Origin: Candidatus Bathyarchaeota archaeon
Lineage (GTDB): Archaea; Thermoproteota; Bathyarchaeia; Bathyarchaeales; Bathycorpusculaceae
Length of the DNA stretch: 64,000 nt
Assembly: GCA_963707955.1 (NCBI GenBank)
Contig: OY970176.1
Coordinates: forward strand, 1,376,001-1,440,000
Direction of reading: 5' to 3'
The position numbers were made by a program, and so were the translations under genes. Position 1 is the first letter of the stretch. Every line of letters begins with the position of its first letter. A model generated the notes under the pieces. The model was not told the origin of the DNA, did not search any database, and saw nothing but the letters and a program-made list of their open reading frames with translations. Of this stretch, positions 16,391-53,174 are shown piece by piece.

Positions 16391-16468
16391 GCTCCGGTAG
16401 TATAGCCCGGTTAAGTATTCCGGCCTTTCGAGCCGGAGACCCGGGTCCAAATCCCGGCCGGAGCACCA
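16391..16468 (+). tRNA. tRNA-Glu (anticodon TTC), intron-less, CCA encoded
   Basis: Acceptor GCTCCGG/CCGGAGC; anticodon arm CCGGC-CTTTCGA-GCCGG; T arm CCGGG-TCCAAAT-CCCGG; ends ACCA. Confidence 0.96.
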
Positions 16469-38376: not shown

Positions 38377-38835
38377 TATTTTTTCGCTTCGCGACTTCTA
38401 GGAATGAGAACAATGAGTTACAATGGTCTCCTAAAGGAGAACATTAAACCTATCGTTCTCACTCTCTATTTTTAAGTGCTTTAAGAGAAAAAGGCATGGA
38501 AGTATTTATTCTTTCTTTAAGCCTTCCTCAACGTTATGCTCCCGTCGCTGTTTTTCTCGATTCTTAGAATCATTCCCTTCTGCCTGCACGTCGCAGATGA
38601 CGTTTGGATAGTGTTTCCGTGGGAAGCACGTTGATGTGGCGCTCGCGCACATCCTCTTTCTCATTTTGTTGTTGAGATGCAGTTGATGGGACATTTTGTT
38701 ATTTTAACTGACAAAAAAGGCAGTTAATGTATATTTTAAGTGAGACTGTGATACTTCAGAGAATTATGTCCACAGTTGCTTCCAGATCTTTCAAGCAAGA
38801 CTACCACAAGACAACTTTCATATTAGGTATCTTTG

Positions 38836-38849
38836 TTAGCGCGCGCTAA
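38836..38849. repeat. Perfect palindrome TTAGCGCGCGCTAA, type copy of the iterated (CG)n motif
   Basis: Read directly; related tracts near 924, 16594, 39329, 39691, 42075, 42607, 42910, 44094, 45017, 45595, 47970, 49431, 50454, 50987, 51156, 51846, 59563. Confidence 0.95.
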
Positions 38850-38932
38850 TGAGCTAGATTTTGACTGTTTGACAATGATGAAAAGTGATATCTGTCAGAG
38901 CCTTATCAATACCATTTGTAGAGGCATCGAGG

Positions 38933-39323
38933 TTGGACTATAGTGAAATCTTGGTTGGACTGGTATCAGTGGTCGTAGGTGCTTTCGTTGGTTTTCTCGG
39001 TTCAATAATACGCGACTGGCGGAAAGAGAAGAACGAGAAGAAAGAGTTGAAGAGTCGCATAAAAGAAGACCTTGAAATCATCAAAGATAAACTGGTTTCC
39101 GACCTGCAAACAGGAAACGTGCGTCCTCAAGCATTTTTTATTGAGGTGTATGCGGCTCTGAAGCAAGAAGCTAATTCGTAACTTAAATGTGAAAATATCT
39201 CAAAGCGTTCTACGGACTCACATCACGCTTGATGAACTGAGAATGCCTTTGCCAGAGGAAGAGTTGAAAAAGAAGTATTTAGAAGCCATGAATGTAATAA
39301 ACGGAACCTTGAAATTACTCTAG
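38933..39323 (+). pseudogene. Frameshifted single-TM helical protein (about 130 aa)
   Basis: TTG start after GAGG; TM helix ILVGLVSVVVGAFVGFLGSII; removing 1 nt near 39170 continues LIRNLNVK...GTLKLL* to 39323. Confidence 0.6.
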
Positions 39324-39407
39324 GACTACGCGCGCCCGAACTACATGCTCAGACAAAATCCAAGACTTAATGAGAAAGAAGTTCATTAGAGTATTGAGAG
39401 TCTGTTT

Positions 39408-39521
39408 ATGAGCAGGCGTAGACGGTTTGACAGACTTGAATGTCAGGGTTGCATTTACAAGGGTAGCACGTACTGCTGGAGACAGTGCCCGTATAACATC
39501 TGGAAGACGGAAGAATACTAG
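39408..39521 (+). CDS. 37-aa Cys-rich microprotein
   Basis: MSRRRRFDRLECQGCIYKGSTYCWRQCPYNIWKTEEY; a homologous relic at 49864-49911 supports coding status. Confidence 0.65.
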   Translation: MSRRRRFDRLECQGCIYKGSTYCWRQCPYNIWKTEEY

Positions 39522-39552
39522 ATCTCACGCTGAGCGAACGCAACGATTGAGA

Positions 39553-39645
39553 CTACTTCTTCAAGCGTTTCTCCTTGTGCTTTCTTCTTTTCTCTTCTCT
39601 TTCCTTTTTAGTCATTGGTTTCTTTTTAGTGCTTCCAGTGCTCAA
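39553..39645 (-). CDS. 30-aa highly basic microprotein
   Basis: MSTGSTKKKPMTKKEREEKRRKHKEKRLKK; GGTGA RBS before TTG. Confidence 0.6.
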   Translation of the reverse strand: MSTGSTKKKPMTKKEREEKRRKHKEKRLKK

Positions 39646-39680
39646 TGCAATCACCACGCCTAAATAGTCAGAATAGGGAA

Positions 39681-39833
39681 TTAAGTTTCTGCGCGCGCTC
39701 TGGCTAATGCGCGTGCTTCTTCTTTTCTCCTTACTTTTTCAACGTTACTCTTTCCATGTTTCCATTTTCCTCGGCTTTTCATTCTTTTCAAAAATCGTTC
39801 TCTTTTCGCCTGCTTCTTCTCAGATCGTTTCAA
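39681..39833 (-). CDS. 50-aa highly basic microprotein
   Basis: MKRSEKKQAKRERFLKRMKSRGKWKHGKSNVEKVRRKEEARALARARAET; GGGAGG RBS before TTG. Confidence 0.55.
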   Translation of the reverse strand: MKRSEKKQAKRERFLKRMKSRGKWKHGKSNVEKVRRKEEARALARARAET

Positions 39834-40093
39834 ACAAATCTTCCCTCCCAGAATCAAATAGTAACAACAAACAAGAACTATAACCTATCACCTAAATGCG
39901 AAGTGAATGCTGTGTCTGAAACCGGAATCTAGGATAAGGGAGCCGCGTGAAAACATCCTCAGGATGGCTCTGTTGTTTAATCGCTTTATAAGGGAGTATA
40001 CGTAGTATAGGACTGCGGCGTTCTGTTGTTGAAGGACGAGAAGAACACAGCAACGTTACAAGTTAAAATCAATGATGAAAGATGTGATGGAAA

Positions 40094-40381
40094 ATGGCGG
40101 AAAAATCGGCAATTGTTTTCATTGGAAGTAAAACACCAATGGACTATGTTCTAGCAGTTATCACCAGACTATCCGCGGGCGATGCTAAGGAAGTGATCTT
40201 GAAAGCACGAGGACGAGCAATCACAACAGCTGTTGACGTAGCTGAAATAACCAGAAATCGCTTCCTAAAAGACCTAAAAGTGAGCAAAATAGCTATCGGA
40301 ACAGAGGAGATGCCGGCAAGAGAAGGCGAAAACAGAGCAAGGATGGTTTCAACAATAGAAATAAGCCTTGCAAAAGAGTAG
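40094..40381 (+). CDS. albA: DNA/RNA-binding protein Alba
   Basis: [40 protein letters not shown]. Confidence 0.96.
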
Positions 40382-40451
40382 GAGAACCCTCAAGAAACAC
40401 ACGCGCAATTATAGTGAGGGACTATTAAGAAGCGGACAACGATAAAAACCA

Positions 40452-40547
40452 ATGAAGCTTGCTGTTCTGGTCTACGAGTATCCCCCAAAGATCGTCGGTG
40501 GCTTGGGAACCTACCCGGCTGAAATGACTCGCAAGTTTTATTCGTAG
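40452..40547 (+). pseudogene. N-terminal relic of a GT4 glycosyltransferase
   Basis: MKLAVLVYEYPPKIVGGLGTY..E.TRKF, cut where it meets the 3' end of tbp. Confidence 0.75.
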
Positions 40548-41098
40548 AATATGAGGTTTTGTTCTTCTAAGCTTGCGTGAAGCTTGTGCACTGCGTCATA
40601 AACGTCCTGTTCTTTCTTCGCTCCTGTGCAGACAAGGTTTCCGCTTGCGAATATCAGTATGACTACTTTAGGTTCGTCCATCCTGTAGATCAATCCTGGA
40701 AACTGCTCCGGTTCATACATGGTTTTTACAAGCTTGCTAACTGCCTGTTCCAAGTCTACTTTTCCGCCTAAGCTTACGGAGGCAACGATGTTCTGAATCT
40801 TCAACTCCGGTTTGCTGATGATGATTATTCCACTCTTTTTCAACTCTTTAACAACTGTCAATACAGCCCTGCGGGCTTCTTTTTCCGATTTCGCTCCCGT
40901 GCAAACCATTTTTCCAGAATTGAAAATCAGCGTGGCTGTCTTCGGTCGTTTGAGCCTATACACCAGTCCTGGAAACTGTTCTGGACGATATTCTACTCCT
41001 GGATTACTCTTCACGACAGCGTTTAAGTCGACTTTCTGGCTTAGTGTGGCAGAAGCAACAACGTTTTGAATGTGTACTATTGCTTTAGTCTTTGGCAT
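40538..41098 (-). CDS. tbp: TATA-box-binding protein
   Basis: Two repeats QN.VAS...Y.PEQFPGL.YR...P...LIF.SG..VCTGAK. Confidence 0.98.
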   Translation of the reverse strand: MPKTKAIVHIQNVVASATLSQKVDLNAVVKSNPGVEYRPEQFPGLVYRLKRPKTATLIFNSGKMVCTGAKSEKEARRAVLTVVKELKKSGIIIISKPELKIQNIVASVSLGGKVDLEQAVSKLVKTMYEPEQFPGLIYRMDEPKVVILIFASGNLVCTGAKKEQDVYDAVHKLHASLEEQNLIFYE

Positions 41099-41111
41099 CA
41101 AAAACCACTTC

Positions 41112-41774
41112 CTACAGTGCGTGTGCGCATTCGATGACGCTTAAGCTTCCGCTTCTCCCCAGTCGCAACTGCCGTTCACCGCTGAACCAAGCTACTTTGC
41201 CATTCTTGACATCAATTACGTCGCCCTCATGCACCGTGTCGATCTGCTGGTTCCATAAACTCATTTTCATCGAACCAGTTTCGTCTCTGATAAGTGCGTT
41301 TGATACACAAGCAGTTGTTCCATATCTCGTTTGGACGATTCTAGATTTCGGAATTTCAAGCACCTTTGCTTTAAGACTGATCTTCTTCATTCCAACTTTC
41401 AAGTCACCAATTTTAGAGTTAGCACCCTCAAAATTCTTAAATGAGGAAACTCTGGCCAAAATTGCTTCCGTAAAGCTTTCGAGCTGATCCTTTCCTCGCA
41501 GGATGGCAATCGATATCGGAAATTGAGCTACAACCTTTCGCTCGTTGGTAAAGAGAAAATTCGCTGAATTCTTCTTCCTCTTGCGACATTTCACAACCAA
41601 CTGCTTACATTCTGACCCGTCGTTATTCCAAGCTTCCACGATACAATTGAAAAATTCACTCGAATCAACCTTATGCAACACCGCAATTCTCGCAAGGTAC
41701 TCCAGAATCCGTCCATCTTTGTATGAAATGCTGTTAAGAGGCCTGCCTCTACCTCTCCAAATTTGTCTAGCCAT
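41112..41774 (-). CDS. OB-fold single-stranded DNA-binding (RPA/SSB-like) protein with extra N-terminal domain
   Basis: KIGDLKVGM..ISLKAKVLE...IRDETGS..MSLWN...GDVI.V.NG...L.LGR.G. Confidence 0.88.
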   Translation of the reverse strand: MARQIWRGRGRPLNSISYKDGRILEYLARIAVLHKVDSSEFFNCIVEAWNNDGSECKQLVVKCRKRKKNSANFLFTNERKVVAQFPISIAILRGKDQLESFTEAILARVSSFKNFEGANSKIGDLKVGMKKISLKAKVLEIPKSRIVQTRYGTTACVSNALIRDETGSMKMSLWNQQIDTVHEGDVIDVKNGKVAWFSGERQLRLGRSGSLSVIECAHAL

Positions 41775-41944
41775 CTAACTTGTTTCCACTCTGCTTTTTT
41801 TCACTCGACAAATCCATCGCTAAAATAATAGATCTGGAATGTGCATCTCACTATTCTCAACATCACTTATATAGCTTAGCTGCTAGGCCTACCTGTCTAT
41901 AGTTGTTGAAGTCGTCTGAGGTACGCCCTAACGTTTAGCGCGTT

Positions 41945-42070
41945 CTAGCTGAGCAGTTCGACTCTTGCTCCTATTGCTTGTCCAAGTGTGCCTTTGTGGA
42001 ATTTGGCTGTGACAACGCTTTTCTTGCCGTGCAAGCCCATAATTTTGCCGATGAAGCTGTTCTGTCCATA
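41945..42070 (-). pseudogene. rpl35ae: C-terminal relic of ribosomal protein L35Ae
   Basis: YGQNSFIGKIMGLHGKKSVVTAKFHKGTLGQAIGARVELLS*; matches GKI..LHG..G.V...F...LPGQA.G; 5' half absent beyond the CGCGCGC at 42075. Confidence 0.75.
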
Positions 42071-42161
42071 CTAACGCGCGCTCCAGACCATAAAAAGACT
42101 CGGGCACCTAACACTCAGGCAGTAGCCAAGAAAAGGTTTCTCCTTCTCTGCACTCACTTCT

Positions 42162-42389
42162 TTGCTTCAATCGAATGTCCAAGGGTTTAAACGCGAATTT
42201 GCAGAGTATTTGGGCGCAAAGCATGCAATTTGTATCTCAAACGGCACAGTATCCCTTGAAATAGCTCTGTTAGCTATGGGTGTAGGTAAGAGTGATGAGG
42301 TCATCACTTCGCCTTGTGCATTCGGTGTCGTTCCAATAAGGTGTGTGTTAAAAAAATCTTCACTGCAGTACACTACAACTAGGGATTAA
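42162..42389 (+). pseudogene. Relic of a DegT/DnrJ/EryC1/StrS aminotransferase
   Basis: F.REFAEYLGAKHAICISNGTVSLEIALLAMGVG..DEVITSP..F, then similarity is lost. Confidence 0.85.
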
Positions 42390-42459
42390 CAAAACGCGCA
42401 TGCTCATTTTTGCAACAACTTGCAAGAGATCATGATTTGACTGAATGTGTATGCGTCAG

Positions 42460-42603
42460 CTAATGAAGTTGATAGTTTATTTTTCCTTTTTCATTCACTT
42501 TAGATATGATTATGGTGAATTGTGCACCTTTGCCAGGAATGACATTTTCTTGTATGGTCCAACCGTAAAATTCCGTAATCTGGATCAGGTAAAGTCCGTA
42601 GTC
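42460..42603 (-). pseudogene. C-terminal relic of a histidine kinase HATPase_c domain
   Basis: DYGLYLI..ITEFYGWTIQEN..PGKGAQFTIII (G2/G3 box region); starts 3 nt from the GCGCGCGCGC at 42607-42616. Confidence 0.75.
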
Positions 42604-42684
42604 TGAGCGCGCGCGCTAAATTGAAAAGGTGACAAAACTTCTATATATGTTAGGTGTCTAAGCTTGAACTAGCGGAGATCGAAT

Positions 42685-42909
42685 ATGAAACCTGAGCATT
42701 ATAAACCGATAAGGAAAGAAAAGCCCAAACGAAAGGGCAAGATTAGTGCGCGCAAGAGTCGAATGCTTGCAGAGGCTCAAGAATGGAAACCCATCACTTC
42801 TCCACAATTGCGTGAGGCTTACTCTGCTAAAATAGAATGGGTAAGGAAGCTAATTCCCAAATTGAAAAGAGAAGCAGAAGTGCCGGAAGAAAAAAAAGAG
42901 CTTAGATAA
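42685..42909 (+). CDS. 74-aa basic hypothetical protein
   Basis: TATATA at about 42642, GGAG RBS, ATG; flanked by (CG)n tracts on both sides. Confidence 0.6.
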   Translation: MKPEHYKPIRKEKPKRKGKISARKSRMLAEAQEWKPITSPQLREAYSAKIEWVRKLIPKLKREAEVPEEKKELR

Positions 42910-42941
42910 GCGCACGCGCGCGCTTTTTACGTTTCGCTTAA

Positions 42942-42971
42942 TTATCCTAATGTTGTTTATCCTAATGTTGT
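42942..42971. repeat. Perfect 15-bp tandem duplication TTATCCTAATGTTGT x2
   Basis: Copies at 42942-42956 and 42957-42971. Confidence 0.9.
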
Positions 42972-43031
42972 TCTTTTCCTAAGAACTATCGGAAGTACCA
43001 AATCGTGAATTACCATTCTGCTCATTTGAAA

Positions 43032-43259
43032 TCACTCCATCTTAACTTTAAGAATCCATTTTCCTTTAGGACTGCCGTCTAAATCGACTCCTCTGCCCTT
43101 TAACACTTTAAATTCGCCCTGTTTCAAACCTAAATTTTGCATGGCGAATTCTGTTGCTTGTTTAATCGTACAGAATCCAGCTGGTTTCTTTGCCTCAGTC
43201 TCTGTAAATCCCCATTCTGGCGGAACTAAACTGCCTATTTGCAAAACTTTTAATCTCAT
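43032..43259 (-). CDS. 75-aa hypothetical protein
   Basis: GAGG/GGAGGT RBS upstream of ATG; globular-looking sequence. Confidence 0.65.
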   Translation of the reverse strand: MRLKVLQIGSLVPPEWGFTETEAKKPAGFCTIKQATEFAMQNLGLKQGEFKVLKGRGVDLDGSPKGKWILKVKME

Positions 43260-43485
43260 TCCTCTTTAACCTCCTCAAGGGAAATAGCAGAACAGTCTAT
43301 GAATCGACAGTCTCGTCACTTCATGTCTTCGCTCCAGCTATTATAGAATGGAAATCGCTGTTAAAGCTTGCTTATCCCTTTAAGAAATCTTCTTCAAGCC
43401 AATTTTATGTATCAGAGAAAAATAGGGAAAGTTACGTTATAACCATTCTCCCAATCAATAATAACTCAACAATTTAGTAATAGAG

Positions 43486-43566
43486 TTACTTCTTTTCCTC
43501 TGGCTTTTTCTCTGCGGGTTTCTTTTCCTCTTTTTTCTCTTCCTTCTTCTTTCGCTTCAAGGGCAT
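43486..43566 (-). CDS. 26-aa Lys/Glu-rich microprotein
   Basis: MPLKRKKKEEKKEEKKPAEKKPEEKK; GGGGTGA RBS; 40 nt downstream of the Cren7-like gene. Confidence 0.55.
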   Translation of the reverse strand: MPLKRKKKEEKKEEKKPAEKKPEEKK

Positions 43567-43606
43567 GTCAATCACCCCCACTTAGTTTGTTATTGGCTCA
43601 TGGATG

Positions 43607-43777
43607 TCAGATCTTTTGTTTGCTCAACGCAACTCTAAATGGTTTCTTGCATTGTGAGCAATCGAAAAGACCGATCTCCATCTGCATCCTCTTGCCCGTT
43701 TTGTCAGGTCGACCAGCCATCGTCCATCTTTTCTTTGGCGAACTCACTTCGGTTCCACACTTTGGACATTTAGCCAT
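43607..43777 (-). CDS. Cren7-like Zn-ribbon chromatin protein
   Basis: MAKCPKCG.EV..PKK.W.MAGRP..TG....IGLFDC..CKKPFR; P.K.W...IGLF...FR is the Cren7 signature; GGAGG RBS. Confidence 0.8.
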   Translation of the reverse strand: MAKCPKCGTEVSSPKKRWTMAGRPDKTGKRMQMEIGLFDCSQCKKPFRVALSKQKI

Positions 43778-44269
43778 AACGTTTCCTCCATTACCAGTCA
43801 TCATGTCGTTGTAAACCGAATGAATAAAGGGTTTATGATGCTTTTAGTCCGTTCTTGCTCTGTCATTCTTTCACTTTCCATTTCCGGTCGAGTTCTCAAT
43901 CATTTCTTTGTGTGCTTTTTCTTGCTCTTCTTTTTCTTCTTGCCCAAAAGCCTCCCCCCGCGCTAAATCGCGTAATTCGTTCCTGTGTAATGTAATCAGG
44001 TCATATATAAAAAATATCAAATCAAAAACGTTATTATTGGTTTTACCACCACTGCTTCAAAATTCTCAACTGCTTCTGGTTGACCTACAAACACGCGCGC
44101 GCCCCGCCGAGACCCGCGCCCGAAAGAACAGGGCATGCTGCTTAACACTCTTCGCAACAAAGATGACTGCCAAGCGCGCATGCATGTTCCTAAAATGACT
44201 TTATGAAAGACGTCTGATATGTATTGCGTGGACTGGCTAGTCTTTGACTATGGTCCGTGCGACCGGTAA

Positions 44270-44645
44270 AATGACTGGACGATGCCCGTGAGCTGCTAGA
44301 TGACGCCGTGAAGATTGCCGAGGAGATTGTTGAGGTGATGCAGCCTGACATGGAAACCCGTTTCAAAGTCTGCTCAGGATACGTTCTCTCCAGCATACGT
44401 AGACACCTGCGAAACCAAGGATTTAACGTGGAAGAAGTGGAAATCAGAGGCGAACTCCAAGCGATGGTTGCGCTAAGCTACGTAAGATGGTGCCGGCAGA
44501 AAGACTGGAAGACGAGAGACGCTTCTGGGCGCTTTTAGAATGGGTTGCGGAAAAACCCAAAATCAGAGAAAAACTCGTAAAAACAGGGTGGAAAAGCTGG
44601 CGTGAAAAGTGGCGAGAGCATGCTTTTAAGATGGCTAGAAAATAA
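44270..44645 (+). pseudogene. 5'-truncated, frameshifted conserved hypothetical gene
   Basis: LDDAVKIAEEI...VCSGY...GELQ in one frame, then FWALLEWV...REKLVKTGWKSW...* in another. Confidence 0.65.
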
Positions 44646-44728
44646 CGTTGGAAAATATTTCGGAAGACTATCTGCTTTCTAGGGGAATAAAATTAGGCAG
44701 GTCAATGTGGAAAAAACACTAAAAAGTC

Positions 44729-44956
44729 TTATTTGACTATTTCAGCGTTTGCGGCGCTACGGCCTATCCTCGTGATCCTTATTTTAACATGGTCTCTAGG
44801 CTTTGCGTTGGCAACGAATATTACGAAACCTTGGATTCTGGCTATGTCTTCCCCTTGGCGGCTCGTCTCCGTTATGTCCACTTCGTATTCCTTGCCCATC
44901 TCAACTGGGCAAGGCTTAAAGTCCCCACCATAACCGCGTCTTCTCTCATAACTCAT
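44729..44956 (-). CDS. Single TRAM-domain RNA chaperone (possibly decaying)
   Basis: PVEMGKEYEVDI...GEDIARIQGFVIFV.NAKPRD.VKIRI; two normally Gly positions are replaced (GED, PRD). Confidence 0.88.
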   Translation of the reverse strand: MSYERRRGYGGDFKPCPVEMGKEYEVDITETSRQGEDIARIQGFVIFVANAKPRDHVKIRITRIGRSAANAEIVK

Positions 44957-45022
44957 AGGGCATCTTCCTCCTTTCACATTTGTGATGATAATGCTCACTT
45001 TAAGACTTTAAGTGTTCGCGCG

Positions 45023-45120
45023 CGTCATGAGACACCTAGAGAACTTGATGAGGCTTTGGATAAAGCTGATGCCTATATCTTGGGAGCTCCATTGTACTGT
45101 TTGGAGGTAAATGGTTTAAC
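45023..45120 (+). pseudogene. Internal relic of a flavodoxin/NADPH-dependent FMN reductase gene
   Basis: ELDEALDKADAYILGAPLY..EVNG; begins at the CGCGCGCG at 45017-45024. Confidence 0.55.
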
Positions 45121-45145
45121 CAGGACTGAAGGAACGGGGATAAAC

Positions 45146-45439
45146 ATGATATCGTCTAAGGCGAAAAATCGAATGAAACGTGAGCTAAGCTTGGAGAAGC
45201 CAACAATATGGGTTGGTAAGGAGGGAGCGTCGCCGCAGACGGTGAATGAGATTTCTAGGCAGTTGGAGAAAAGGAAAATAGTGAAAGTTCAAATATTGAA
45301 AAACGCGCTTAAGGATGAGAGCGCCAAAGACATCGCGTCAAAAACAGCTCAGCAAACGGCATCCACCCTAATCGATGTTCGAGGACACACTTTCATACTG
45401 CATAAGCCTCGCAAAAAGAGAAGTGAAAAGCCTCTGTGA
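45146..45439 (+). CDS. YhbY/CRM-domain RNA-binding protein
   Basis: KPTIWVGKEG, EI.RQLEKRKIVKVQILK, IDVRGHTFIL. Confidence 0.92.
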   Translation: MISSKAKNRMKRELSLEKPTIWVGKEGASPQTVNEISRQLEKRKIVKVQILKNALKDESAKDIASKTAQQTASTLIDVRGHTFILHKPRKKRSEKPL

Positions 45440-45742
45440 GAGGACCGTTTAGAGGTTTTGAAAGGGATGAGATTGGAATAATCTTGTTGAGGAAGGTTCA
45501 AAAACACCCATTTCCTTCATGCCTTTAACCTTGCTTTCATGAACCTACCTCTGTCAAGAGATCCTAAAATGGCTGACGCATCCATTGACAAAGACGCGCG
45601 CGGAGCTGCGTGGACCTTGTATGCATGTCAGCACATGCCTTATTTGTATTGAAGTTTCAGGGTCACTTTAATGGTCCTCTACTTATATTGGGAGAAAGGA
45701 TTAGTGCTTCTATCAGAAATATATTTAGTGGAGCGTTGAAGA

Positions 45743-47911
45743 TTGAGCGAAGTTCAGCTGAGAGTTCTGGATTCCAGACAGAGAGATGTGGCAAGAGGAA
45801 TCGCTAGAATAGACCAGACCACAATGCAAAAGTTAGGAGTTTCATCTGGAGACGTAATAGAGTTCTCAGGGAAGAAAAAGACGTCGGCGATCGCTTGGCC
45901 AGCGTACTCTGAAGAACAGGATCCAAGCATTATGCGAATCGATGGGTTCTTACGTAAAAATGCCGGCGTATCAATAAACGAGTACGTTGTAGTTCGCAAG
46001 GCTGAAGTTAAAAATGCTATGAGCATAGTGCTTGCTCCAGTGGATATGCGATTTAACTTTGACGAAGACTTTGCAAATTTTGTGAAGAACAGACTTATGG
46101 ATAGGACGTTTGTTGAGGGAGACACGACGCTCGTTATGATGCTTGGTCATTCCGTTCAATTCACTGTTGCGAAGATGCAGCCCCACGGAATAGTCAAGAT
46201 GACTCACGATACTAGATTGCAGATATTGACTGAACCTGTTGCGGAAGCTGAAGTTGTGCCACGTACCACCTATGAGGACTTAGGAGGGTTGGAGGAGGAG
46301 ATTCAACGGATAAGGGAGATGGTTGAACTTCCAATGGAGCATCCCGAGATTTTCCAGAGGCTTGGAATAGATCCTCCGAAAGGGGTTCTACTGATCGGTC
46401 CACCCGGCTGCGGAAAGACACTCCTAGCTAGAGCAGTAGCGAATGAGTCTGGTGCAAACTTTTTCTCAATAAACGGGCCTGAGATAATAAGTAAGTTCTA
46501 TGGGGAGTCGGAGGCGAGGCTTCGAGAAATATTTCAACAGGCCCAACAGAACGCTCCGAGCATTATACTCATAGACGAGCTGGACTCCATAGCGCCCAAA
46601 CGTGAGGAGGTTACAGGTGAAGTGGAGAGAAGGGTTGTCGCTCAGCTTCTAGCTCTCATGGACGGATTGTCTGGTAGAGGAAATGTCATAGTAATAGGTG
46701 TAACGAACAGGCCGAATGCCTTGGATCCAGCTCTCAGGAGGCCTGGGAGGTTTGACCGCGAGATAGAGATAGGGATCCCAGACAAGCGGGGGCGTCATGA
46801 AATATTGTTGATTCATAGCAGAGGCATGCCCCTAGCCGGTGATGTTGACTTAAAGGTGCTTGCTGAGCGGGCGCACGGTTACACGGGTGCCGACTTGGCC
46901 GCCCTGTGTAGAGAGACAGCTATGAAAGCTCTACGTAGGTATCTTCCCGAGATAAATCTGGAGGAAGAGCGAATACCTTCCTGCGTCCTGGAGAAGATGG
47001 AGGTTCGGATGGATGATTTCATGAACGCCTTCAAGGAGATTACGCCTACAGTCATGAGGGAGGTTGCTGTGGAAGTCCCGGTTGTTCATTGGGATGAAGT
47101 GGGAGGCTTGGAGGAGGTTAAAGAGGAGTTAAAGGAGGCTGTTGAGTGGCCGCTGAAGAATCCTGAAGTCTTCAAGAGATTGGGGATTCAGCCGCCTAAG
47201 GGTATACTGTTAATAGGTCCGCCCGGTTGTGGGAAGACGATGCTGGCCAGGGCTGTTGCAACTGAGAGCGAGGCAAACTTCATCTCGATTAAGGGTCCGG
47301 AGGTCTTTTCTAAGTGGGTTGGCGAGTCTGAAAGGGCTGTTCGAGAGGTCTTCAGGAAGGCTAGAATGGCTTCGCCAGCCGTCATATTCTTCGATGAGAT
47401 TGACTCTCTTGCCCCAAGGAGGAGGCTGGGTTACGGCGACAGCGGCGTAACTGAACGCGTCATCAGCCAGCTTTTAACAGAAATGGATGGAATGATACGC
47501 TCAGAAGACATCATATTCTTAGCTGCGACAAATAGGCCCGACATCATCGACCCAGCCGCATTAAGGCCAGGCAGATTCGATCGGCTGATATATGTTCCAG
47601 AACCTGACGAAGCTGCCAGGCTTGAAATCTTTAAGATTCACACGAAGAACATGCCACTATCAAAGGATGTGGACATAAAGGAGCATCGCATAACGAAAGG
47701 TTACTCCGGCGCCGATATATCATCCGTGTGCAGAGAGGCCGCCATGAACGCTTTGAAAAGAGACATCAACGCAAAAGAGGTCACCTTCAGCGATTTTGAG
47801 AAAGCTATGGAGAAGGTTCCACCAAGCATACCGCCAGAAATTGAGAATTGGTACAGGAGCTTCATGAATCAGGTTCGAAGGATGCAGAAACCTACGCCTC
47901 TTATAGTGTAA
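45743..47911 (+). CDS. cdc48: Cdc48/VCP-family AAA+ ATPase
   Basis: N-domain plus two AAA modules (GPPGCGKT x2, IDE/FDE, RPGRFDR x2). Confidence 0.96.
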
Positions 47912-48033
47912 TCCCAGAAGCGACAGATAAACGTCAATTCACCCCTCTCTCTAGTCAACCTTTTTGATTCGCGCGCGCGGAAAACCGTGCGAAACACGCA
48001 CGTCCGTTCTTCCTCCTCGCTCTTGATTTCTGT

Positions 48034-49386
48034 TTAGATTTTGTCCTTTGATAGTTTTGCGATAAAGAAGCCGTTGCATTTGTGAGTGTGAGGATAGAGC
48101 CTTTGACATTTTTCTAATCCTCTCAGTCCGGACGAGCCTATTCTTGGCGTTATTTCGCTCAATGAAAGCTCGGGATGCCATTTCAGGAATTTTTCAATGA
48201 TCATTTCATTCTCTTCGGCTGTTACACTGCATGTAGAATAGATTAATACGCCTCCTGACTTTACCTTATCTGCGCAGTTGTTCAGCATTTGCCATTGAAT
48301 TTCAGCCATTCGCTCAATCGACCTGGGGGTAAGCCGCCATTTGGCTGAAGGCACTTTTCCGAAGGTGCCTGTGCCCGTGCATGGTGGATCTAAAACTATG
48401 ATGTCTGCCTCTTCCGTGAACGGTAATGGGGTACGTGCATCTGCAATGATTGGTTCGGCGATCTCTACACCCATGTGTACAATTTGGCTTTTCCAGACGG
48501 TGATTCTGCGCTTTGAGTAATCTATGGAGAGGATGCTGCCGCGGTTCTGCATTAACTGGGCCAGATAGGTGGTTTTTGCTCCTGGGGCCGCACAAACATC
48601 TAAGACGGTCATTCTAGGTTGTGGGTTTGCGGTTTCTACTGTGAAGCAGCTTGCCTTGTCTTCAACGTAGAATAGGCCTTCCTTGAAGCTTGATGCTCTG
48701 GTTACAGGTTGTTTTGCTGCTGCGACTTTGTACGTGTAGCGCAACTGTTCAACCTTCTCAAGTCTAACGCCTTCTTCAGAGAGTCTTTCAAGAATTTGCT
48801 TTTCCTCAGCTTTGAGGGTGTTCAGTCTAAGATAAGTTGGCGGCGGTTGCGCATTTGCTTCTAGCATGGCAATAGTTTGGTTTCTGCCGAATAGTTTGAA
48901 GCAGTATTTTACGAACCACGTTGGATGGAAAGTTTGAAGTCCAACCTGTTCCTCGCCACCTGCACCTGCAAACACCATTGCAGGCCGTTGGGTCAATAGC
49001 ATGCCTAGGAAGGGCTCTACTTTAATTAGCGTTTTCCATCCTAGAATGCTGCGTGCCAGTTTAGCTATGCTCCCAGCTTCTTTGAGGTTCGGACTGAACC
49101 AGTTTTTAGCCATTCGCATTTGATAAACATAAAGTCGCAGGAACGCCTGCACGCCCAAACTGCATTCGTTGATTGTCGCAGGTTTCATGGTGCCATTTAT
49201 GAATTTGTCTATGAAGTTTTGCCGGCGAACAGTTTCAGAAACAAGCATATGAGCTAATCTTAAAGAGTCATGGTCTTCTATGCCTAGCTGTTTAACCGTT
49301 CTCGCGAAGGCTAAAGGCTCACTTAATCTTCGCATTTCCATCCAGCTCAGAGTTTCAATGGCAAGCGTCCAAGCTTCTTTGAGCAA
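48034..49386 (-). CDS. RsmB/NOP2 family RNA m5C methyltransferase
   Basis: LRLNTLK, LDVCAAPGAKT, LDPPCTGTG, YSTCS..AEENE, GFFIAKL. Confidence 0.94.
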   Translation of the reverse strand: MLKEAWTLAIETLSWMEMRRLSEPLAFARTVKQLGIEDHDSLRLAHMLVSETVRRQNFIDKFINGTMKPATINECSLGVQAFLRLYVYQMRMAKNWFSPNLKEAGSIAKLARSILGWKTLIKVEPFLGMLLTQRPAMVFAGAGGEEQVGLQTFHPTWFVKYCFKLFGRNQTIAMLEANAQPPPTYLRLNTLKAEEKQILERLSEEGVRLEKVEQLRYTYKVAAAKQPVTRASSFKEGLFYVEDKASCFTVETANPQPRMTVLDVCAAPGAKTTYLAQLMQNRGSILSIDYSKRRITVWKSQIVHMGVEIAEPIIADARTPLPFTEEADIIVLDPPCTGTGTFGKVPSAKWRLTPRSIERMAEIQWQMLNNCADKVKSGGVLIYSTCSVTAEENEMIIEKFLKWHPELSLSEITPRIGSSGLRGLEKCQRLYPHTHKCNGFFIAKLSKDKI

Positions 49387-49863
49387 ACGCGTTCACACAC
49401 CGATGACAAAGGCGAGGACGTAGATAAAAAGCGCGCGCGCTATGTCCGGATAAGCTGGGTCGGAAAGGCTGTTAGCGTAGACCGAGCGAGCGAGTTCAAC
49501 ATGGACATCTTAATTCCGCCGCAAATTTGTCCTTTCATTACTTTTCTTGACGAACAGTCATAATGAGTCACTCAAACACTCAGCCCCACCAGCCTCAGAC
49601 AGCAGATCCAGAATCCCCACATCAACCTCGTCGACACAAGCAATCCTCCCAAACATCGTCCTTTTAAAATGGGATAGGCCCTTGCGCACTTTGAAAGAGG
49701 AAAAAGAGGGTTGCGCGGGAGCGCGCGTGGTTAGGAGGCGCGTTGCCTTGTCCCGAAATTATGTGTTGAAGTAGGTTCGTGAGACTGCCTTGTCGGTTCT
49801 CCCAATGTTTTCTGCTGCTTCTCTTGTTAGGACTAGACTAAGTATGCTGTAGTGAGAATAAAG

Positions 49864-49911
49864 GCGCCAGACGTTGTAAGGACGCTGCCTCCAGCAATAA
49901 ACAGTCCCCTT
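49864..49911 (-). pseudogene. Degenerate second copy of the Cys-rich microprotein C-terminus
   Basis: KGTVYCWRQRPYNVWR versus KGSTYCWRQCPYNIWK in 39408-39521. Confidence 0.7.
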
Positions 49912-50291
49912 GATTATCTCTCCCATCTTGACGCGTGTGGGCTACTCATATCCAAAGAGTGCCATAAGACCCCTTTGATCTCCGGGCGGTCTCATCCAGC
50001 TTCTCACGCAATGTAGGTTCCGATCTAATAAGGGATGCATCCTCGTATATAGTATTTTTAAGGAGCGTGCTTGACTATCAACACGCTTATTAACAGCGCT
50101 ATAGCCTTGACCTAAGGGCGCTAATTTTGGAGCACAACGCTATGAGCGAAGAGGAAGAAGAAATAGAGGAAGAAGAATGGGGCATTAGGTGTGGAACCAA
50201 GCTCTACGGAGCCCTATAGACGCGGAAACAACGCCTTGTTTTTAATACCCTGTTTTTTAATCTTAAAACCTTTGAAGGAGGTGACAGACAA

Positions 50292-50429
50292 ATGGCCAAG
50301 TGTCCGACCTGTGGAAAAGAAGTTGAAACGCCGATAAAGGAGTGGAATATGGGCAGGAACAAAAAGATACATGTTAAGCAGTACGAGTGTTGCGGGAAAA
50401 AGTTCCGTGAATATGGAAAGAAGGTTTAG
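50292..50429 (+). CDS. Second, shorter Cren7-like Zn-ribbon protein (45 aa, below ORF-track cutoff)
   Basis: MAKCPTCGKEVETPIKEWNMGRNKKIHVKQYECCGKKFREYGKKV; strong GGAGGTGA RBS. Confidence 0.8.
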   Translation: MAKCPTCGKEVETPIKEWNMGRNKKIHVKQYECCGKKFREYGKKV

Positions 50430-50462
50430 GAGCTGCGCATGCTTTTCAGGAGAGCGCGCGCG

Positions 50463-50663
50463 AAGGGAGATTATGTCAAGGATAATGGTGAGAAAACGAG
50501 AATGTAGGCTTGCTAGGTTGTGGTAGAAGGCGTTCCATGCTTTCCTAACAACATCTAAAACCGGACTTAGCGCCATGTAAGGCATTTTTCTTGCAGCCAC
50601 AAGCTCCACTTTCGCTTCACGAAGATGCTGAAGAGCCCAACCCTCTGCGTAGCCACTCATCAT
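50463..50663 (-). pseudogene. 3'-truncated helical (HEPN-like N-terminus) gene downstream of rps17e
   Basis: GWALQHLREAKVEL.AA...VRKA..AFY; after the GCGCGCGCG at 50454-50462 the frame is only the antisense of the Cren7-like gene. Confidence 0.5.
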
Positions 50664-50703
50664 CTGTCTTCACTTCTATTTGGCTTCCAAAAAGTTGAAG
50701 CAC

Positions 50704-50946
50704 TTAATAAGATGACGCGCCTTTCTCCGTTTCCTCTAAAGTTTCTTCTGGCAATTCCTGCTCTTGCACAGCAAAACAACGTGTTATGTATCCAGCAATC
50801 AGGTTCCGAACCTTTGGCGTTCCACCAGTCACTAAACTGTTAACCGATTGCTTGTTCTTTTCAAAATCATTAGAAAACCTATCAGGAAAACGCCTGATAA
50901 GCTCCTTAGCCATTCGTTTGATGTGTTTTGTGCGCCCACTCCCCAA
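50704..50946 (-). CDS. rps17e: 30S ribosomal protein S17e (possibly a divergent paralog)
   Basis: RT.HIKR.AKEL...PDRFS.DFE.NK...KVRNLIAGYITR; GGAGG RBS with TTG start. Confidence 0.92.
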   Translation of the reverse strand: MGSGRTKHIKRMAKELIRRFPDRFSNDFEKNKQSVNSLVTGGTPKVRNLIAGYITRCFAVQEQELPEETLEETEKGASSY

Positions 50947-51232
50947 ACACATGTTCCTCCAAGCACATATCTGAACTATATTAGACCGCGCGCGCTATTA
51001 TCCTTATAAACTGAATTACGTTTCAATAATAATCGAGCATACATGTCCCAAATCATGTTGAATCCAACTCTCAATCGACGAATTAAGCCAAAATAGGCTC
51101 GGATTCATGGGAAAATCCCAATTAGTGGGAATTGAAAGATTCTGGTAATCCGTCAGCGCGCGCGCTCTCTGCGGAGGTTTAAACTTCGGCAGGGAGACTC
51201 TTAGAAGCTCGAAAAAATACTAGGGGGGTGGG

Positions 51233-51847
51233 TCACCGGACGCGCTTGACGATGACCTCGCCGTTTGAGAGTTCCTTAATTATTTCCGAACCATCTTTGA
51301 GGTGCGCTAAGAGCTGAGCCTCAGGTATCTGAGAGAACTCTGCGCAGTGCTCGCCGTCTGGGCAGTCCTCAGCTTTCTTAGCTTCTTTCACAATGCGCTT
51401 CTTATCTTCCTTGAGCTCATCCCCAGTCCTAAGATGATATTGTCTCCTTATCTCCGCCCGCTCAGTTTCTAACTTCTCAATTCTGTCTATAACTTCTTTC
51501 GAGACTGCTGGCGCTTCGCTCGTAAACTCCAACGCAGGCACTGCTTCTCGGTACTTCGCTCTCAGCTGCTCAATCGCTGGCCTTGAGTATGGAGCCTCTT
51601 CGCCCTTGACTTTTCTGCCGCGTATAACCCTTGCCCAGTTAGGAGAAATCCGGATTTCCTCACGCGCCGTGTTAACATACCGGCGCGCATCGTGCCACGA
51701 GAATGGAACACCTGCAGCCCTGCTCAGCGTCCATATTAAGTGTCCCAAGCGTTGGTAGGAGATCGGTCGGTAAGGCGAATAGGCCTCGAAGAAAATGTTA
51801 TCCTCGGCAATGACTTTGCGCCCGAGTTTCTGCTCCATCCATTCCCG
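51233..51847 (-). mobile_element. C-terminal remnant of a tyrosine recombinase/integrase
   Basis: FSWHDARRY (HxxR), IRGRKV (H/W position), EAPYSRP (catalytic Tyr); upstream frame closed by TAG adjoining the (CG)n tract at 51846-51856. Confidence 0.8.
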
Positions 51848-51970
51848 CGCGCGCTATTAACATTTTGGTTCCGTTGCTTCAGAAGGGGGTTGCCTACGTT
51901 TTCCCAAATCGGCTTGCCCTGTGCGAAAATCAAGCCTCTATATTTGCTTCGACCCTGAACTTTTGTTGTC

Positions 51971-52507
51971 TTAGGGAATTCTTCGTGTTACAGGGTTTTG
52001 AATCTTCGCTCTGATTTCTCTCTCTAAGCAATCAGCTATGTACCTCAATGAAAGAGGTCTTAAGACGTCGTCACTGTTTAGGGCTATGAGAAATGAGCCA
52101 GTTAACGTCATGGATTCTGCCCATTCTGCCCTGATTTCTTGCACGTATTCAGCATATTCTGAATAGGTCTTGTGAACCGAGACTGCTACCATGTCTGAAC
52201 CTAAGCCCATGCCGGTGGAAACGAAGATCATGTTAGGATTCTTTGCCGTGAGACCCTTTCCCTTTGCCACTTTGGCTTCGGGGCGCTGTTCACGTTTCTT
52301 GTTTCCAAATGTAATTGCTATGATCTCAAAACCCAGTTTTCTCAGATTCACACTTCCAGTGTACTCGATGATCCCTTCTTTTTCAAGCCTTGTTCTGATT
52401 CTGGAGACTGTAGGTTGAGACACACCAATTATCTTTGCCAGTTCCCTGTCACTTTTTCTGCTGTTCCTGATGAGCTCACAAACCAGTTTGATCTCTAATT
52501 CCTTCAA
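51971..52507 (-). CDS. Lrp/AsnC-type winged-HTH transcriptional regulator
   Basis: NSRKSDRELAKIIGVSQPTVSR.R.RLEKEGII. Confidence 0.92.
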   Translation of the reverse strand: MKELEIKLVCELIRNSRKSDRELAKIIGVSQPTVSRIRTRLEKEGIIEYTGSVNLRKLGFEIIAITFGNKKREQRPEAKVAKGKGLTAKNPNMIFVSTGMGLGSDMVAVSVHKTYSEYAEYVQEIRAEWAESMTLTGSFLIALNSDDVLRPLSLRYIADCLEREIRAKIQNPVTRRIP

Positions 52508-52800
52508 ACACCTTCCTCCTTAAACAAGCAGGTCTGTCTATACTATTTCGTAAGTTGTTTAAGAAATCTTCCATATTGTTATAATCATTTGTATTATCTA
52601 TGGTCGCCATAACATATGAAACCATCCACAATTCAATACAGTCTTTCTGCAGAACACCGACAACTTGGTCCCAAACATTGCAAGGGGCCTCGAAGACCAT
52701 TGCGAAAAACAGAATCGCCACGAACAGTTAGCCTGATTTTGTTGTTCCACGGAAAGCTATTTTAGCCGAGAGAGGCACAACAAGGAACGTTGGGTTTTGC

Positions 52801-52995
52801 ATGGTTAAAGAGGAACCAAAAAAGCACACTGGCAAGTGCTATGACTGCGGTGGCCCTCTAGAATTGTTTGAATTAGATATTAAGCAATCTACGAAGATTA
52901 TGAAATGCCAGAATTGCGGCCTGTTCCATTTCTACAAGAAAGACTTCATTGGCAATTACAAGCTGACCAAAGTCAGCAATAATCCTGCCGCGTAG
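52801..52995 (+). CDS. Small Zn-ribbon protein
   Basis: CYDCGG...CQNCG. Confidence 0.75.
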   Translation: MVKEEPKKHTGKCYDCGGPLELFELDIKQSTKIMKCQNCGLFHFYKKDFIGNYKLTKVSNNPAA

Positions 52996-53174
52996 TGATA
53001 CACTTTAAACATCACCCAATAAGCGATTTACCATCTCGAAAGTGCCCCGCGTGTACACTGCGCTTCAACAATGTTCACATTTGATTTGATTCCCTGACGT
53101 GGACACTGTCATCAGTAGTGCGCGCCCTGACAAGTATTAAATATGGGTGTGTCTAGTCCTGCTGAGGGTTGATC

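Follow-up and report, generated by a model that had tools for sequence, protein, structure and literature searches.

What is a run of extra chromatin, transcription and ribosome genes, mixed with pieces of other genes, doing between two core genes of a Bathyarchaeia chromosome? Here we analysed the rpl3-pyrE spacer of a Candidatus Bathyarchaeota archaeon within a 64,000-nucleotide stretch of DNA (the window), which corresponds to bases 1376001-1440000 of a single 2,346,764-bp contig with 47.9% G+C. A prediction made from the letters of this DNA (the original prediction) had described a capture hotspot there, in which extra copies of information genes are retained. We put at about 0.65 the probability that window positions 38421-51856 are a young, genome-specific accretion of DNA segments carrying horizontally exchanged accessory paralogs that are kept by selection. 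The genome is labelled G000, its relatives G001-G137, loci and assemblies L006-L077, and public sequencing runs X1-X20. Gene families in the island were assigned with Pfam and NCBIfam, and paralogs were found by tblastn against the genome itself. A tract is an alternating-CG run of at least 6 nt, unless a length of at least 8 nt is given.

The island is 13.4 kb long (13,436 bp), specific to G000, and interrupts the ancestral sequence ...ATGAGTTA/TTAACATTTTGG..., whose uninterrupted word ATGAGTTATTAACATTTTGG, the exact empty site, is kept in G001, G007 and G004. The left junction reads GAGTTA/CAATGG and the right junction CGCGCGCGC-TA/TTAACATT; the insertion point would be a TA in the spacer. 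The left core flank is rpl3 (37363-38376, minus strand; Pfam Ribosomal_L3, 299 bits), detected in 29 of 31 related genomes with 59-98% amino acid identity, and the right core flank is pyrE (53169-53789, plus strand; weak Pfam Pribosyltran match). We compared the DNA upstream of rpl3 in 13 relatives, and in none of the 13 do island genes lie between rpl3 and pyrE. Six of them (G004, G009, G018, G005, G003 and G002) have rpl3 directly before pyrE with a gap of 146-205 bp. In G001 and G007, the closest relatives (rpl3 98% and 96% identical in amino acids), the spacer holds only lrp, an 81-aa open reading frame (ORF) and a gene for a 64-aa zinc ribbon (znr64). In G014 the APS-kinase gene, the neighbour of pyrE in G000, adjoins rpl3 and pyrE was not found, while in G012 and G020 rpl3 alone was matched. 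The comparison of rpl3-pyrE synteny proposed with the original prediction goes against what would have refuted it: the island order is conserved in 0 of 13 relatives, and the island genes are not the sole genomic copies.

This spacer has taken up other DNA as well. In G013 (L006 1237-3783) it holds a lineage-specific insertion with an 848-aa secreted-type protein, and in G016 (L012 1148-2262) two inserted rubrerythrin-like ORFs; both insertions are without GC tracts, and both genomes belong to other genera. Since the spacer independently took up DNA in G013, G016 and G007, the word hotspot in the original prediction is fair, and its reading of the locus as a place where extra information genes are captured is supported. 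Read coverage, a further check that it had named, supports the assembly. In X1, the public run that holds the island best, contigs span the borders at 38300-38923 (depth about 35.8) and 51335-53200 (about 35.7), unique inner pieces have depths of 31-36, and Logan contigs also bridge several inner tracts with 0-2 mismatches. X1 is probably the source sample and hence not independent of the assembly. Mis-assembly is unlikely because the X1 contigs bridge both borders at a depth equal to that of the flanks.

The Alba, TBP, SSB-like, TRAM, YhbY, Cdc48, RsmB and S17e proteins of the island and its zinc ribbons are accessory paralogs, with other copies elsewhere in the genome, as would be expected of the extra copies that had been proposed. 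There are five alba genes in the genome, the paralogs being 97, 89, 75 and 55% identical to the island copy, and four tbp genes, with paralogs of 96% (872 kb), 85% (694.8 kb) and 65% identity. The TBP gene at 694.8 kb is the core copy, because it is syntenic with the locus of G018, which has one TBP gene. By synteny with the same genome, the core copy of the island's 65-aa zinc ribbon is the 73% identical paralog at 720.5 kb, and a further zinc-ribbon match in the genome has 100% identity. Complete genomes of this genus carry 3-5 TBP genes each, those of other genera mostly 1-2. The core copy of cdc48 lies at 1629-1631 kb (77% amino acid identity), and the other copies of rsmB and rps17e at 1169 kb (65% amino acid identity) and 1703 kb (67% identical). 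The closest SSB-like copy is 80% identical and located at 873 kb, yhbY has second copies of 100% and 51% identity, the TRAM paralogs are 60-63% identical, and an intact rpl35ae gene, of which the island holds a fragment, is found at about 1679 kb.

Units of the island have often been copied with tracts at their ends. The yhbY unit (45017-45601, 585 bp) is 100% identical to 715099-715683; the homology starts with CGCGCGCG and ends with GACGCGCGC, tracts bound both sites, and the flanks are unrelated. The 311-bp unit of a 74-aa ORF (orf74; 42602-42912) is 97% identical to 1662706-1663014 and 91% identical to 869872-870114, and it recurs together with the alba unit (39709-40389) at 1662.7-1664.0 kb with 97-99% identity. 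The segment 40533-42018, which comprises tbp, ssb and an L35Ae piece, recurs at 872-874 kb with 91% identity. The window and 873-kb copies of the L35Ae piece break off at different points, each with a GC tract that is missing in the intact gene. At 40533, the joint between a truncated glycosyltransferase gene behind alba and tbp is a 1.2-kb deletion across the 6-bp repeat AAGTTT. Boundary tracts had been predicted for cdc48, rsmB and orf74, and all are present: cdc48 is flanked by tracts 45595-45602 and 47970-47979, the rsmB cassette lies between 47970-47979 and 49431-49440, and orf74 between 42607-42616 and 42915-42923. From high-scoring segment pairs of at least 85% identity against the own genome and 15 loci of relatives we obtained 63 distinct homology ends in the island, 13 of which lie at most 3 bp from a tract versus 1.2 expected (2000 random draws gave 6 at most). 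Over the whole genome there are 2721 repeat ends, and 8.4% of them are no further than 5 bp from a tract, versus 0.42% of random points. In another tract-rich island of G000 (L046 2568-3987; G000:C1:1663668-1665087), a 97%-identical alba adjoins a full-length TFB (TFIIB) gene, which could make this general transcription factor a further member of the mobile pool.

Species of the genus share these units as a common pool by horizontal exchange, and the sites that the units occupy differ from genome to genome. For five core genes, comparison of G000 with G009 or G004 shows saturation at synonymous sites, with proportions of synonymous differences (pS) of 0.69-0.89. For rsmB, the synonymous divergence (dS) is 0.096 from G009 and 0.266 from G004; dS from G009 is 0.23 for a conserved 75-aa ORF (orf75) and 0.14 for orf74, and dS from G004 is 0.56 for tbp and 0.34 for alba. 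The nucleotide identity of rsmB is 97% in G001, 96% in G009 and 91% in G004, and the site differs in each. In G009 it sits between core genes whose G000 counterparts (71-74% nucleotide identity) are without rsmB. The rsmB gene is accompanied by its upstream tract in G000, G009 and G004 and, with mutations, in G001. Island-type Cdc48 is 96% identical in L077, 90% in L074, 90% in G137 and 89% in G103, being a second copy in G103 and G137; among the matches listed from 151 genomes of the order it reaches at most 83% in other genomes, and 53 further matches are weaker. X5, a run on sediment that belongs to a different study, also contains the cassettes (93-99% identity, high depth), but without the island flanks. 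Its contigs diverge from the island order at 40533, 49438, 50461 and 51155, the last three of which are tract positions. X5 cover is absent on 38797-39293 and 51719-53200 and near-absent on 38300-38796 and 51222-51718, X19 cover is absent on 38300-38796, 44264-44760, 51222-52215 and 52713-53200, and X20 covers 11 of 30 bins only, gaps that alone prove nothing.

A 20-kb contig of G103 (L052; G103:C16:1-20000) with 20 GC tracts carries an intact solitary Cas1 gene followed by small ORFs. It also holds two treble-clef zinc fingers, TBP, Cdc48 (92% nucleotide identity), Alba and an SSB piece, and further TRAM, TFE-alpha, an AsnC-type domain, a methyltransferase and eIF-1A. This contig may be a second information-gene island beside a casposon-like element, or it may be mis-binned.

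The island copies are kept under purifying selection. The ratio of nonsynonymous to synonymous divergence (dN/dS), another of the checks proposed at the outset, is 0.05-0.35 in all 26 between-genome comparisons, including 0.10-0.30 for alba and 0.06-0.12 for tbp against copies in other genomes and 0.07 for orf75 against G009. Against own paralogs it is 0.06-0.35 where dS is defined and there are enough changes, the two youngest pairs, alba (97%) and orf74 (96%), having too few. Island units are probably expressed, as suggested by RNA-library contigs from two further studies that are 95-99% like cdc48, rsmB, S17e, yhbY, TRAM, orf75 (this contig from run X19) and a 46-aa zinc ribbon. Each unit also apparently carries its own promoter, since TATA-like boxes, read from the sequence by eye, follow the tracts of rsmB, S17e and orf74. 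In four units a GC tract lies directly upstream of a TATA-like box, at the position of the B recognition element (BRE). These boxes are TTTTTATC for rsmB (tract 49431-49440), TCTAATATAG for S17e (50987-50995), TAAATTG and TTCTATATATG for orf74 (42607-42616), and TATTAAATA for pyrE (53120-53125). The cell would gain variant copies on top of its core set, which could serve dosage or provide alternative TBP, chromatin or ribosome variants.

The genes that were gathered are a biased set. In the genome-specific part, eight intact genes have a Pfam annotation; the products of seven act on nucleic acids or ribosomes, and the remaining one is Cdc48. Thirteen other tract-rich islands contain 212 ORFs, and as a comparison we took 143 of these, from 10 islands (the other three, with 69 ORFs, were omitted for size); 57 of the 143 have a family. 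Only 9-10 of the 57 are of the information type, namely Alba (2), TBP, SSB, TRAM, TFIIB, YhbY, L35Ae and helix-turn-helix (HTH) proteins, and the remainder includes GNAT acetyltransferases (7), glycosyltransferase-4 (GT4), MFS, response regulator, CBS and radical SAM proteins, transposases and others. The information bias belongs to this island and its sister copies, not to CG-tract islands in general.

That bias could also be without functional meaning, if it merely reflects that one source block (alba-tbp-ssb-rpl35ae) was duplicated and that short, self-contained, strongly expressed genes stay intact when fragments are captured. We consider this a serious possibility, though not the one to which we lean. 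It accounts for the different small genes that most other CG-tract islands carry (9-10 of 57 being nucleic-acid handlers), and for alba, tbp and ssb having come as one or two segments copied from a locus like that at 870 kb. It does not predict that cdc48 and rsmB, two long genes (722 and 450 aa), have stayed complete and have tracts immediately beyond their ends, nor that all cargo genes are under purifying selection across genomes. The sister islands of G103 and L077 again hold TBP, Cdc48, TRAM and Alba, that of G103 also TFE-alpha and eIF-1A, which argues against a by-product; these islands are not independent of the one studied here, because cassettes are shared with it.

Several points weigh against an accretion of selected, exchanged paralogs. 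Fisher's exact test of 7/8 versus 9-10/57 gives P values of about 1e-4 to 2e-4, which are nominal and come from a post hoc test. The alba, tbp and ssb genes are not independent draws in it, because alba-(GT)-tbp-ssb-L35Ae is one duplicated block. The 20-kb contig of G103 carries the caveat of possible mis-binning. The RNA contigs do not show transcription of the copies of G000, because they come from relatives (95-99%) and the libraries may hold DNA. Lastly, 50 of the 63 homology ends are more than 3 bp from any tract, and the joint at 40533 is a plain 6-bp microhomology deletion.

The tracts themselves are a mark of the genus. CGCGCGCG occurs 14 times in the window, 12 of them within 42608-51853; 100 shuffles gave 0.67 on average and never more than 3. 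The window has 34 tracts, 19 of them in the island, where about 6.6 would be expected from the genome mean. Tract density per kb is 1.41 in the island, 0.30 in the rest of the window and 0.49 in the genome (Poisson P about 6e-5). The first island tract is TTA-GCGCGCGC-TAA at 38839-38846, and the other 18 start at 39329, 39691, 42075, 42607, 42748, 42915, 44094, 44174, 45017, 45595, 47970, 49431, 49721, 50454, 50987, 51156, 51683 and 51846. The whole genome has 1151 tracts of 6-11 nt, and GCGCGCGC occurs 464 times versus 25 expected. About half of the 1151 have an A at the 5' side and a T at the 3' side, with no further conserved flank. Long ORFs are poor in tracts of at least 8 nt: ORFs of at least 120 aa make up 78% of the genome but contain only 59 of the 455 such tracts. 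G000 has 114 copies of the 10-mer AGCGCGCGCT and each of the 10 congeners searched has 7-92, while the 20 genomes searched from other genera have 0-1 each; the GC mark is hugely over-represented in every searched genome of the genus and absent from neighbouring genera. We also tried to define tract arrays (at least six tracts less than 2.5 kb apart), but 57 were observed versus 59 in random placements, and tract density and the top islands were used instead.

For the origin of the joints we tentatively favour transposon-end scars with captured filler, at somewhat less than even odds, and rank this model above a palindrome recombinase and above GC filler that is independent of transposons. The palindromes would be remains of the ends of a TA-inserting IS5-like insertion sequence (IS) and of a family of miniature inverted-repeat transposable elements (MITEs) with GCGCGC termini, and the cassettes would be DNA copied or ligated into breaks that these elements made. 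Two IS copies are present, at 389091-390148 (frameshifted) and 1671443-1672539, with DDE_Tnp_1 and DUF772 ORFs. The termini of the first are TA-GCGCGC-ATGCGTGTTCCTAAATT...AATTTCGGAACACACAT-GCGCGC-TA, so that the footprint sequence adjoins the duplicated target. TA-GCGCGC-ATGCKTGTTCCTAAATT is the end of this copy and of MITEs of about 215 bp, and the second copy has a related terminus. Beside tracts, TA is about five times as frequent as expected, usually on one side alone: among 274 G..C tracts of at least 8 nt, 128 have TA on one side and 20 on both sides (148 with any TA). A one-sided TA is consistent with such scars, because breaks at element ends that are repaired by capture of other DNA would leave this pattern.

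Cut-and-paste transposons that target TA (Tc1/mariner, Stowaway-type MITEs, IS630/IS5 relatives) are known to leave excision footprints and to capture filler, and Pack-MITEs capture genes. Similarly, IS and MITE copies in G000 end in GCGCGC beside TA, the TA flanking the tracts is above chance, and the tracts mark deletion, insertion and capture of unrelated DNA. The likeness is incomplete, and the following counts against end scars here. Many tracts, including those of yhbY and cdc48, are without a flanking TA, and the left border of the island has no tract. The presence of the transposase does not track tract abundance: IS5-like transposases (E at most 1e-10) were found in half of the 10 congeners and also in five genomes out of the 20 from other genera, which are free of tracts, and none was found in G004 and G008 despite 39 and 56 copies of the 10-mer. 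Metagenome-assembled genomes (MAGs) often lose IS copies, which makes the presence or absence of a transposase weak evidence either way. Nor was any enzyme tied to the tracts. To our knowledge, footprints on such a scale, with whole functional genes exchanged between species, have not been described in archaea.

Repeats of about 215 bp are dispersed genome-wide in two families with 25 and 23 loci (e.g. 27091-27322 and 234715-234981) and a G-rich core GGGGGGGAGGGTG; one family is the GCGCGC-ended MITE and the other has different ends. A further MITE of about 290 bp at window 62966-63262 has GCGCGC on both sides (GCGCGC-ATGTCTGTTCCT ... AGGAACACGCAT-GCGCGC). Homology to G001 stops exactly at its left tract, and G001 has 3.3 kb of other DNA there. 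The counterpart is rearranged in both G001 and G007, so that the empty-site comparison is uninformative.

A dedicated site-specific or short-homology recombination at the GC palindrome is an unlikely source of the joints, but it has points in its favour. It would amount to an integron-like platform without attC hairpins, in which a genus-specific recombinase would excise and insert tract-gene-tract units. Whole units with a tract at each end are found at unrelated sites (yhbY at 100%, orf74 at 97%, rsmB in four genomes), the tract upstream of rsmB moves with the gene in all four (in mutated form in G001), and the strict limitation of tracts to the genus is what one lineage-specific enzyme would predict. 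The ancestral rpl3-lrp site has no palindrome, and the first insertion therefore did not use one. Moreover, copies of one unit differ in tract length, and a copy may have an end that bears no tract (rsmB in G009; L35Ae in the window versus 873 kb), there are no conserved flanking arms around the 1151 tracts, and the sole recombinase of the island is truncated, with no intact copy in the genome. A precedent exists in the modular island PAISt of Streptomyces turgidiscabies, which is reported to recombine at an 8-bp palindrome serving as its att site (PMC4057263). There too a short palindrome delimits modules that are gained and lost separately. PAISt differs in having an active integrase and a pre-existing palindromic att in the target gene, while the target in G000 has no palindrome and no active integrase is present.

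Since the joints recall integrons, we compared the island with these in more respects. In an integron, or in a cluster of attC sites lacking an integrase (CALIN), the standard parts are IntI beside the array, attC sites that are imperfect inverted repeats of about 57-141 nt, and promoterless one-way cassettes read from a common promoter; archaeal integrons were reportedly described in 2022. Like such arrays, the island is a chromosomal series of mostly single-gene, unrelated units with a short recurrent mark between them, and the units differ between close relatives and are shared horizontally. Unlike them, it has no IntI, its sole recombinase being a truncated XerA-like remnant, and its mark is a GC palindrome of 6-10 nt rather than an attC hairpin of 57-141 nt. 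A search for attC-like repeats found 10 inverted-repeat pairs in 13.5 kb, none of them recurrent at cassette borders except the GC palindromes. The units also stand in both orientations, apparently with their own TATA-like promoters, many are gene stumps, and tracts occur throughout the genome (1151 in total). The island falls outside the definition of an integron.

Similarly unlikely is that the tracts are filler at DNA ends, made in break repair when a repair polymerase adds alternating GC by non-templated or slippage synthesis, independently of any transposon, with the island a collection of repair-captured fragments. The L35Ae piece suits this idea, its two copies being cut differently and each bearing a GC tract that the intact gene lacks. 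A tract may also share its first bases with the truncated sequence (ACGC/GCGCGC), and tract length is variable (6-11 nt). Such filler predicts neither the five-fold enrichment of TA beside tracts nor the GCGCGC next to TA at the IS and MITE termini.

We regard as improbable that the island is a single integrated element (plasmid, provirus or casposon-like transposon) with its own chromatin and transcription genes, which entered once and then eroded. In favour of it, the DNA was inserted at one point and both flanks are intact, the remnant of a tyrosine recombinase adjoins the right border, and the contig of G103 joins an intact Cas1 with TBP, Cdc48, Alba, TRAM, TFE-alpha and eIF-1A, suggesting that joint travel is possible. 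The segments differ widely in nearest copy and age (100% to 65%), however, and relatives share them piecemeal and in other orders. No att direct repeats were seen beyond a possible TA duplication. Among 14 island proteins searched against PHROGs there was no virion, replication or packaging family; the sole match below E 1e-4 was of the TRAM-domain protein to a methyltransferase family, and the others were weak matches to families of unknown function. The island has no Cas1 piece, the four Cas1 matches of the genome being elsewhere and partial or broken. In IMG/VR, the island Cdc48 matched only distant AAA proteins of giant viruses (29-40%), and TBP had no match. The island is unlike a single provirus or plasmid, and the original suggestion of mobile-element cargo, in the sense of one carrier with phage families, att repeats, an intact integrase or close viral relatives, found no support. 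Finally, a chimeric assembly that drew repeated or foreign contigs into the rpl3-pyrE gap is very improbable: the genome is metagenome-derived with a CheckM-type contamination of 5.83%, and the cassettes are multi-copy and also present in other organisms of the same habitats, but X1 contigs cross both borders and inner tracts at a uniform depth of 31-36, the genome is one 2.35-Mb contig, and duplicated markers (S17e, the L35Ae piece) would alone explain the raised estimate.

Gene by gene, the island consists of one- or two-gene units on both strands, interleaved with stumps of other genes. From the tract at 39329, the segment 39329-39897 contains repeated non-coding or low-complexity segments that are 92-94% identical to 819637-819856, 869107-869307 and 868747-869104, without a Pfam match. 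The accessory Alba gene follows at 40094-40381 (plus strand; Pfam Alba, 64 bits), and then a 31-codon N-terminal stump of a GT4 gene (40452-40547, plus), which is 90% identical to the start of an intact 416-aa GT4 gene adjoining alba at 870.9 kb. The stump is joined to the tbp segment via the 6-bp overlap AAGTTT. Accessory TBP (40538-41101, minus) has two repeats of Pfam TBP PF00352 (209 bits, over the curated cut-off). The SSB-like protein (41112-41774, minus) has an OB fold at residues 118-214 (Pfam Ssb-like_OB, 38 bits; NCBIfam SSB, 76 bits, below cut-off). A C-terminal fragment of rpl35ae (41948-42070, minus; Pfam L35Ae positions 60-94) is cut at tract 42075-42081, and an N-terminal fragment of a DegT/DnrJ aminotransferase (42126-42386, plus; Pfam positions 24-74 of 360) is, with the tract behind it, 97% identical in G001:C2. 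The metabolic (DegT, GT4) and L35Ae fragments agree with the original prediction. Fragments of signalling genes, which it had listed as well, were absent among 101 stop-to-stop frames of at least 38 aa.

Next come the orphan genes. The lysine-rich orf74 (42685-42909, plus) gave no family in Pfam or NCBIfam and no usable match in the ESM Atlas. For orf75 (43032-43259, minus) no family was found either, and the ESM Atlas returned only its own Bathyarchaeota cluster. Its family comprises 92 database clusters, all 75-100% identical, and more distant relatives were not found; it is a highly conserved and very narrow orphan family that is abundant in metagenomes. An AlphaFold2 model of orf75 from a 23-sequence alignment had a mean predicted local distance difference test score (pLDDT) of 48.5, too poor for a fold search, and a PDB sequence search with orf75 and the 65-aa zinc ribbon gave nothing below E 0.03. 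The 65-aa protein (43607-43804, minus) is a CxxC...CxxC zinc ribbon with weak zinc-ribbon matches in Pfam. Like a 46-aa zinc ribbon further right (50292-50432, plus; read from sequence, with weak zinc-ribbon matches), whose segment is 93% identical at 822660-823104, it is one of the two proteins first described as Cren7-like. This identity was rejected: against Cren7 (PF11520) the island copies score nothing, and the best score in the genome, at 720500-616 on the paralog of the 65-aa zinc ribbon, is 15.9 bits versus a cut-off of 25.

A MITE or IS end stump, GCGCGC-ATGCATGTTCCTAAAAT, lies at 44174-44200 and has the same end as the IS at 389091-390148 and the MITEs of about 215 bp. Two overlapping ORFs of 76 and 52 aa (44299-44645, plus) are a diverged copy of the locus at 238.8-239.1 kb (66% amino acid identity) and are without a Pfam match. 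The TRAM-domain gene (44729-44998, minus), of an RNA chaperone type, matches Pfam TRAM with 43 bits and NCBIfam PyTRAM with 72 bits, below the cut-off of 85. In the yhbY cassette (45017-45602, plus), yhbY itself (45146-45439; Pfam CRS1_YhbY, 64 bits) has the tail of an upstream gene in front. The 722-aa accessory Cdc48 (45743-47911, plus) contains an N domain, a domain 2 and two AAA modules (PF02359, 99 bits; PF02933, 59 bits; PF00004, 319 bits in two stretches). The 450-aa accessory RNA m5C methyltransferase is of the RsmB/NOL1/NOP2 type (48034-49386, minus; Pfam, 177 bits), and accessory rps17e (50704-50952, minus) scores 77.6 bits against NCBIfam S17e NF002242 (cut-off 72). The intact Alba, TBP, OB-fold SSB, TRAM, YhbY, RsmB, S17e and Cdc48 named in the original prediction thus all have Pfam or NCBIfam support.

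The right end is occupied by the 3' remnant of a tyrosine recombinase (51233-51838, minus; the last 201 codons), which is cut at tract 51846-51854 and has no Pfam match of its own. An integrase remnant had been noted at this position, and it could be confirmed indirectly: the remnant is 76% identical to residues 216-420 of an intact 420-aa gene, G001:C3:193-1455, which reaches 27.3 bits for Phage_integrase versus a cut-off of 27.1 and encodes a divergent XerA-like enzyme. G000 has no full-length copy of the island's recombinase. At G000:C1:2096997-2108976, a sequence of about 6 kb is present in two tandem copies with ORFs of the carboxyltransferase, biotin-carrier and methylmalonyl-CoA-mutase-like kinds, and a 155-aa ORF within them has a C-terminus near-identical to the tail of the remnant.

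Between the island and pyrE lies an older inserted block (51971-52995) common to G001 and G007 and absent from the spacer in G004, G009, G018, G005, G003 and G002. It contains lrp (51971-52507, minus), encoding an Lrp-type HTH protein with Pfam support, then the 81-aa ORF, and znr64 (52801-52995, plus). The Lrp-type regulator that had been counted among the island genes is therefore real, but it belongs to this older block and not to the genome-specific island. A GCGCGC at 53120-53125, the joint between the block and the pyrE promoter, is common to G001, and in G007 other DNA abuts the same point. Rfam (gathering threshold, whole window) gave a tRNA-Glu at 16391 as its sole match, so that the debris is not explained by known RNA.

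Extra transcription factors on a flexible part of the genome have a parallel in Halobacterium sp. NRC-1, which has multiple TBP and TFB genes, several of them on pNRC100/200, proposed to serve alternative promoter selection (PMC1447603). Both cases place general transcription factors beyond the core set on flexible or mobile DNA. They differ in that the island TBP is a small chromosomal cassette accompanied by extra Alba, SSB-like, Cdc48, S17e, YhbY, TRAM and RsmB genes, and in that its host is a non-halophilic, uncultured lineage. In the full-text literature, with subscription journals not covered, neither cassette junctions made of GC palindromes nor mobile cassettes of information genes turned up for Bathyarchaeia.

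The island bears on how genomes of this abundant sediment group are judged. For a genome that is one closed contig, the contamination estimate of 5.83% probably reflects real accessory paralogs of markers, S17e among them; islands of such paralogs raise contamination values that are based on marker genes and break short-read assemblies. With its empty site, borders and donors, the locus is also a well-delimited example for the origin of GC-palindrome junctions. Transcription-initiation, chromatin, ribosomal-protein and ribosome-assembly genes are the standard examples of genes that are rarely transferred. The island is a concrete, testable case of mobile information genes in archaea, with intact, selected copies in a young insertion that are also present at other sites and resemble each other between species far more than core genes do. 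It is conceivable, if rather unlikely, that the genus runs an undescribed gene-shuffling system, in which promoter-bearing single-gene cassettes are joined via GC palindromes, copied within genomes and exchanged between species. Were this so, the pool would include variants of TBP, TFB, TFE, Alba, SSB, eIF-1A, S17e, L35Ae, Cdc48 and RsmB, supposedly untransferable genes, and the islands would be selected toolkits, which could provide alternative modules for transcription, chromatin or the ribosome, or else spares and decoys where viruses and toxins attack the core copies.

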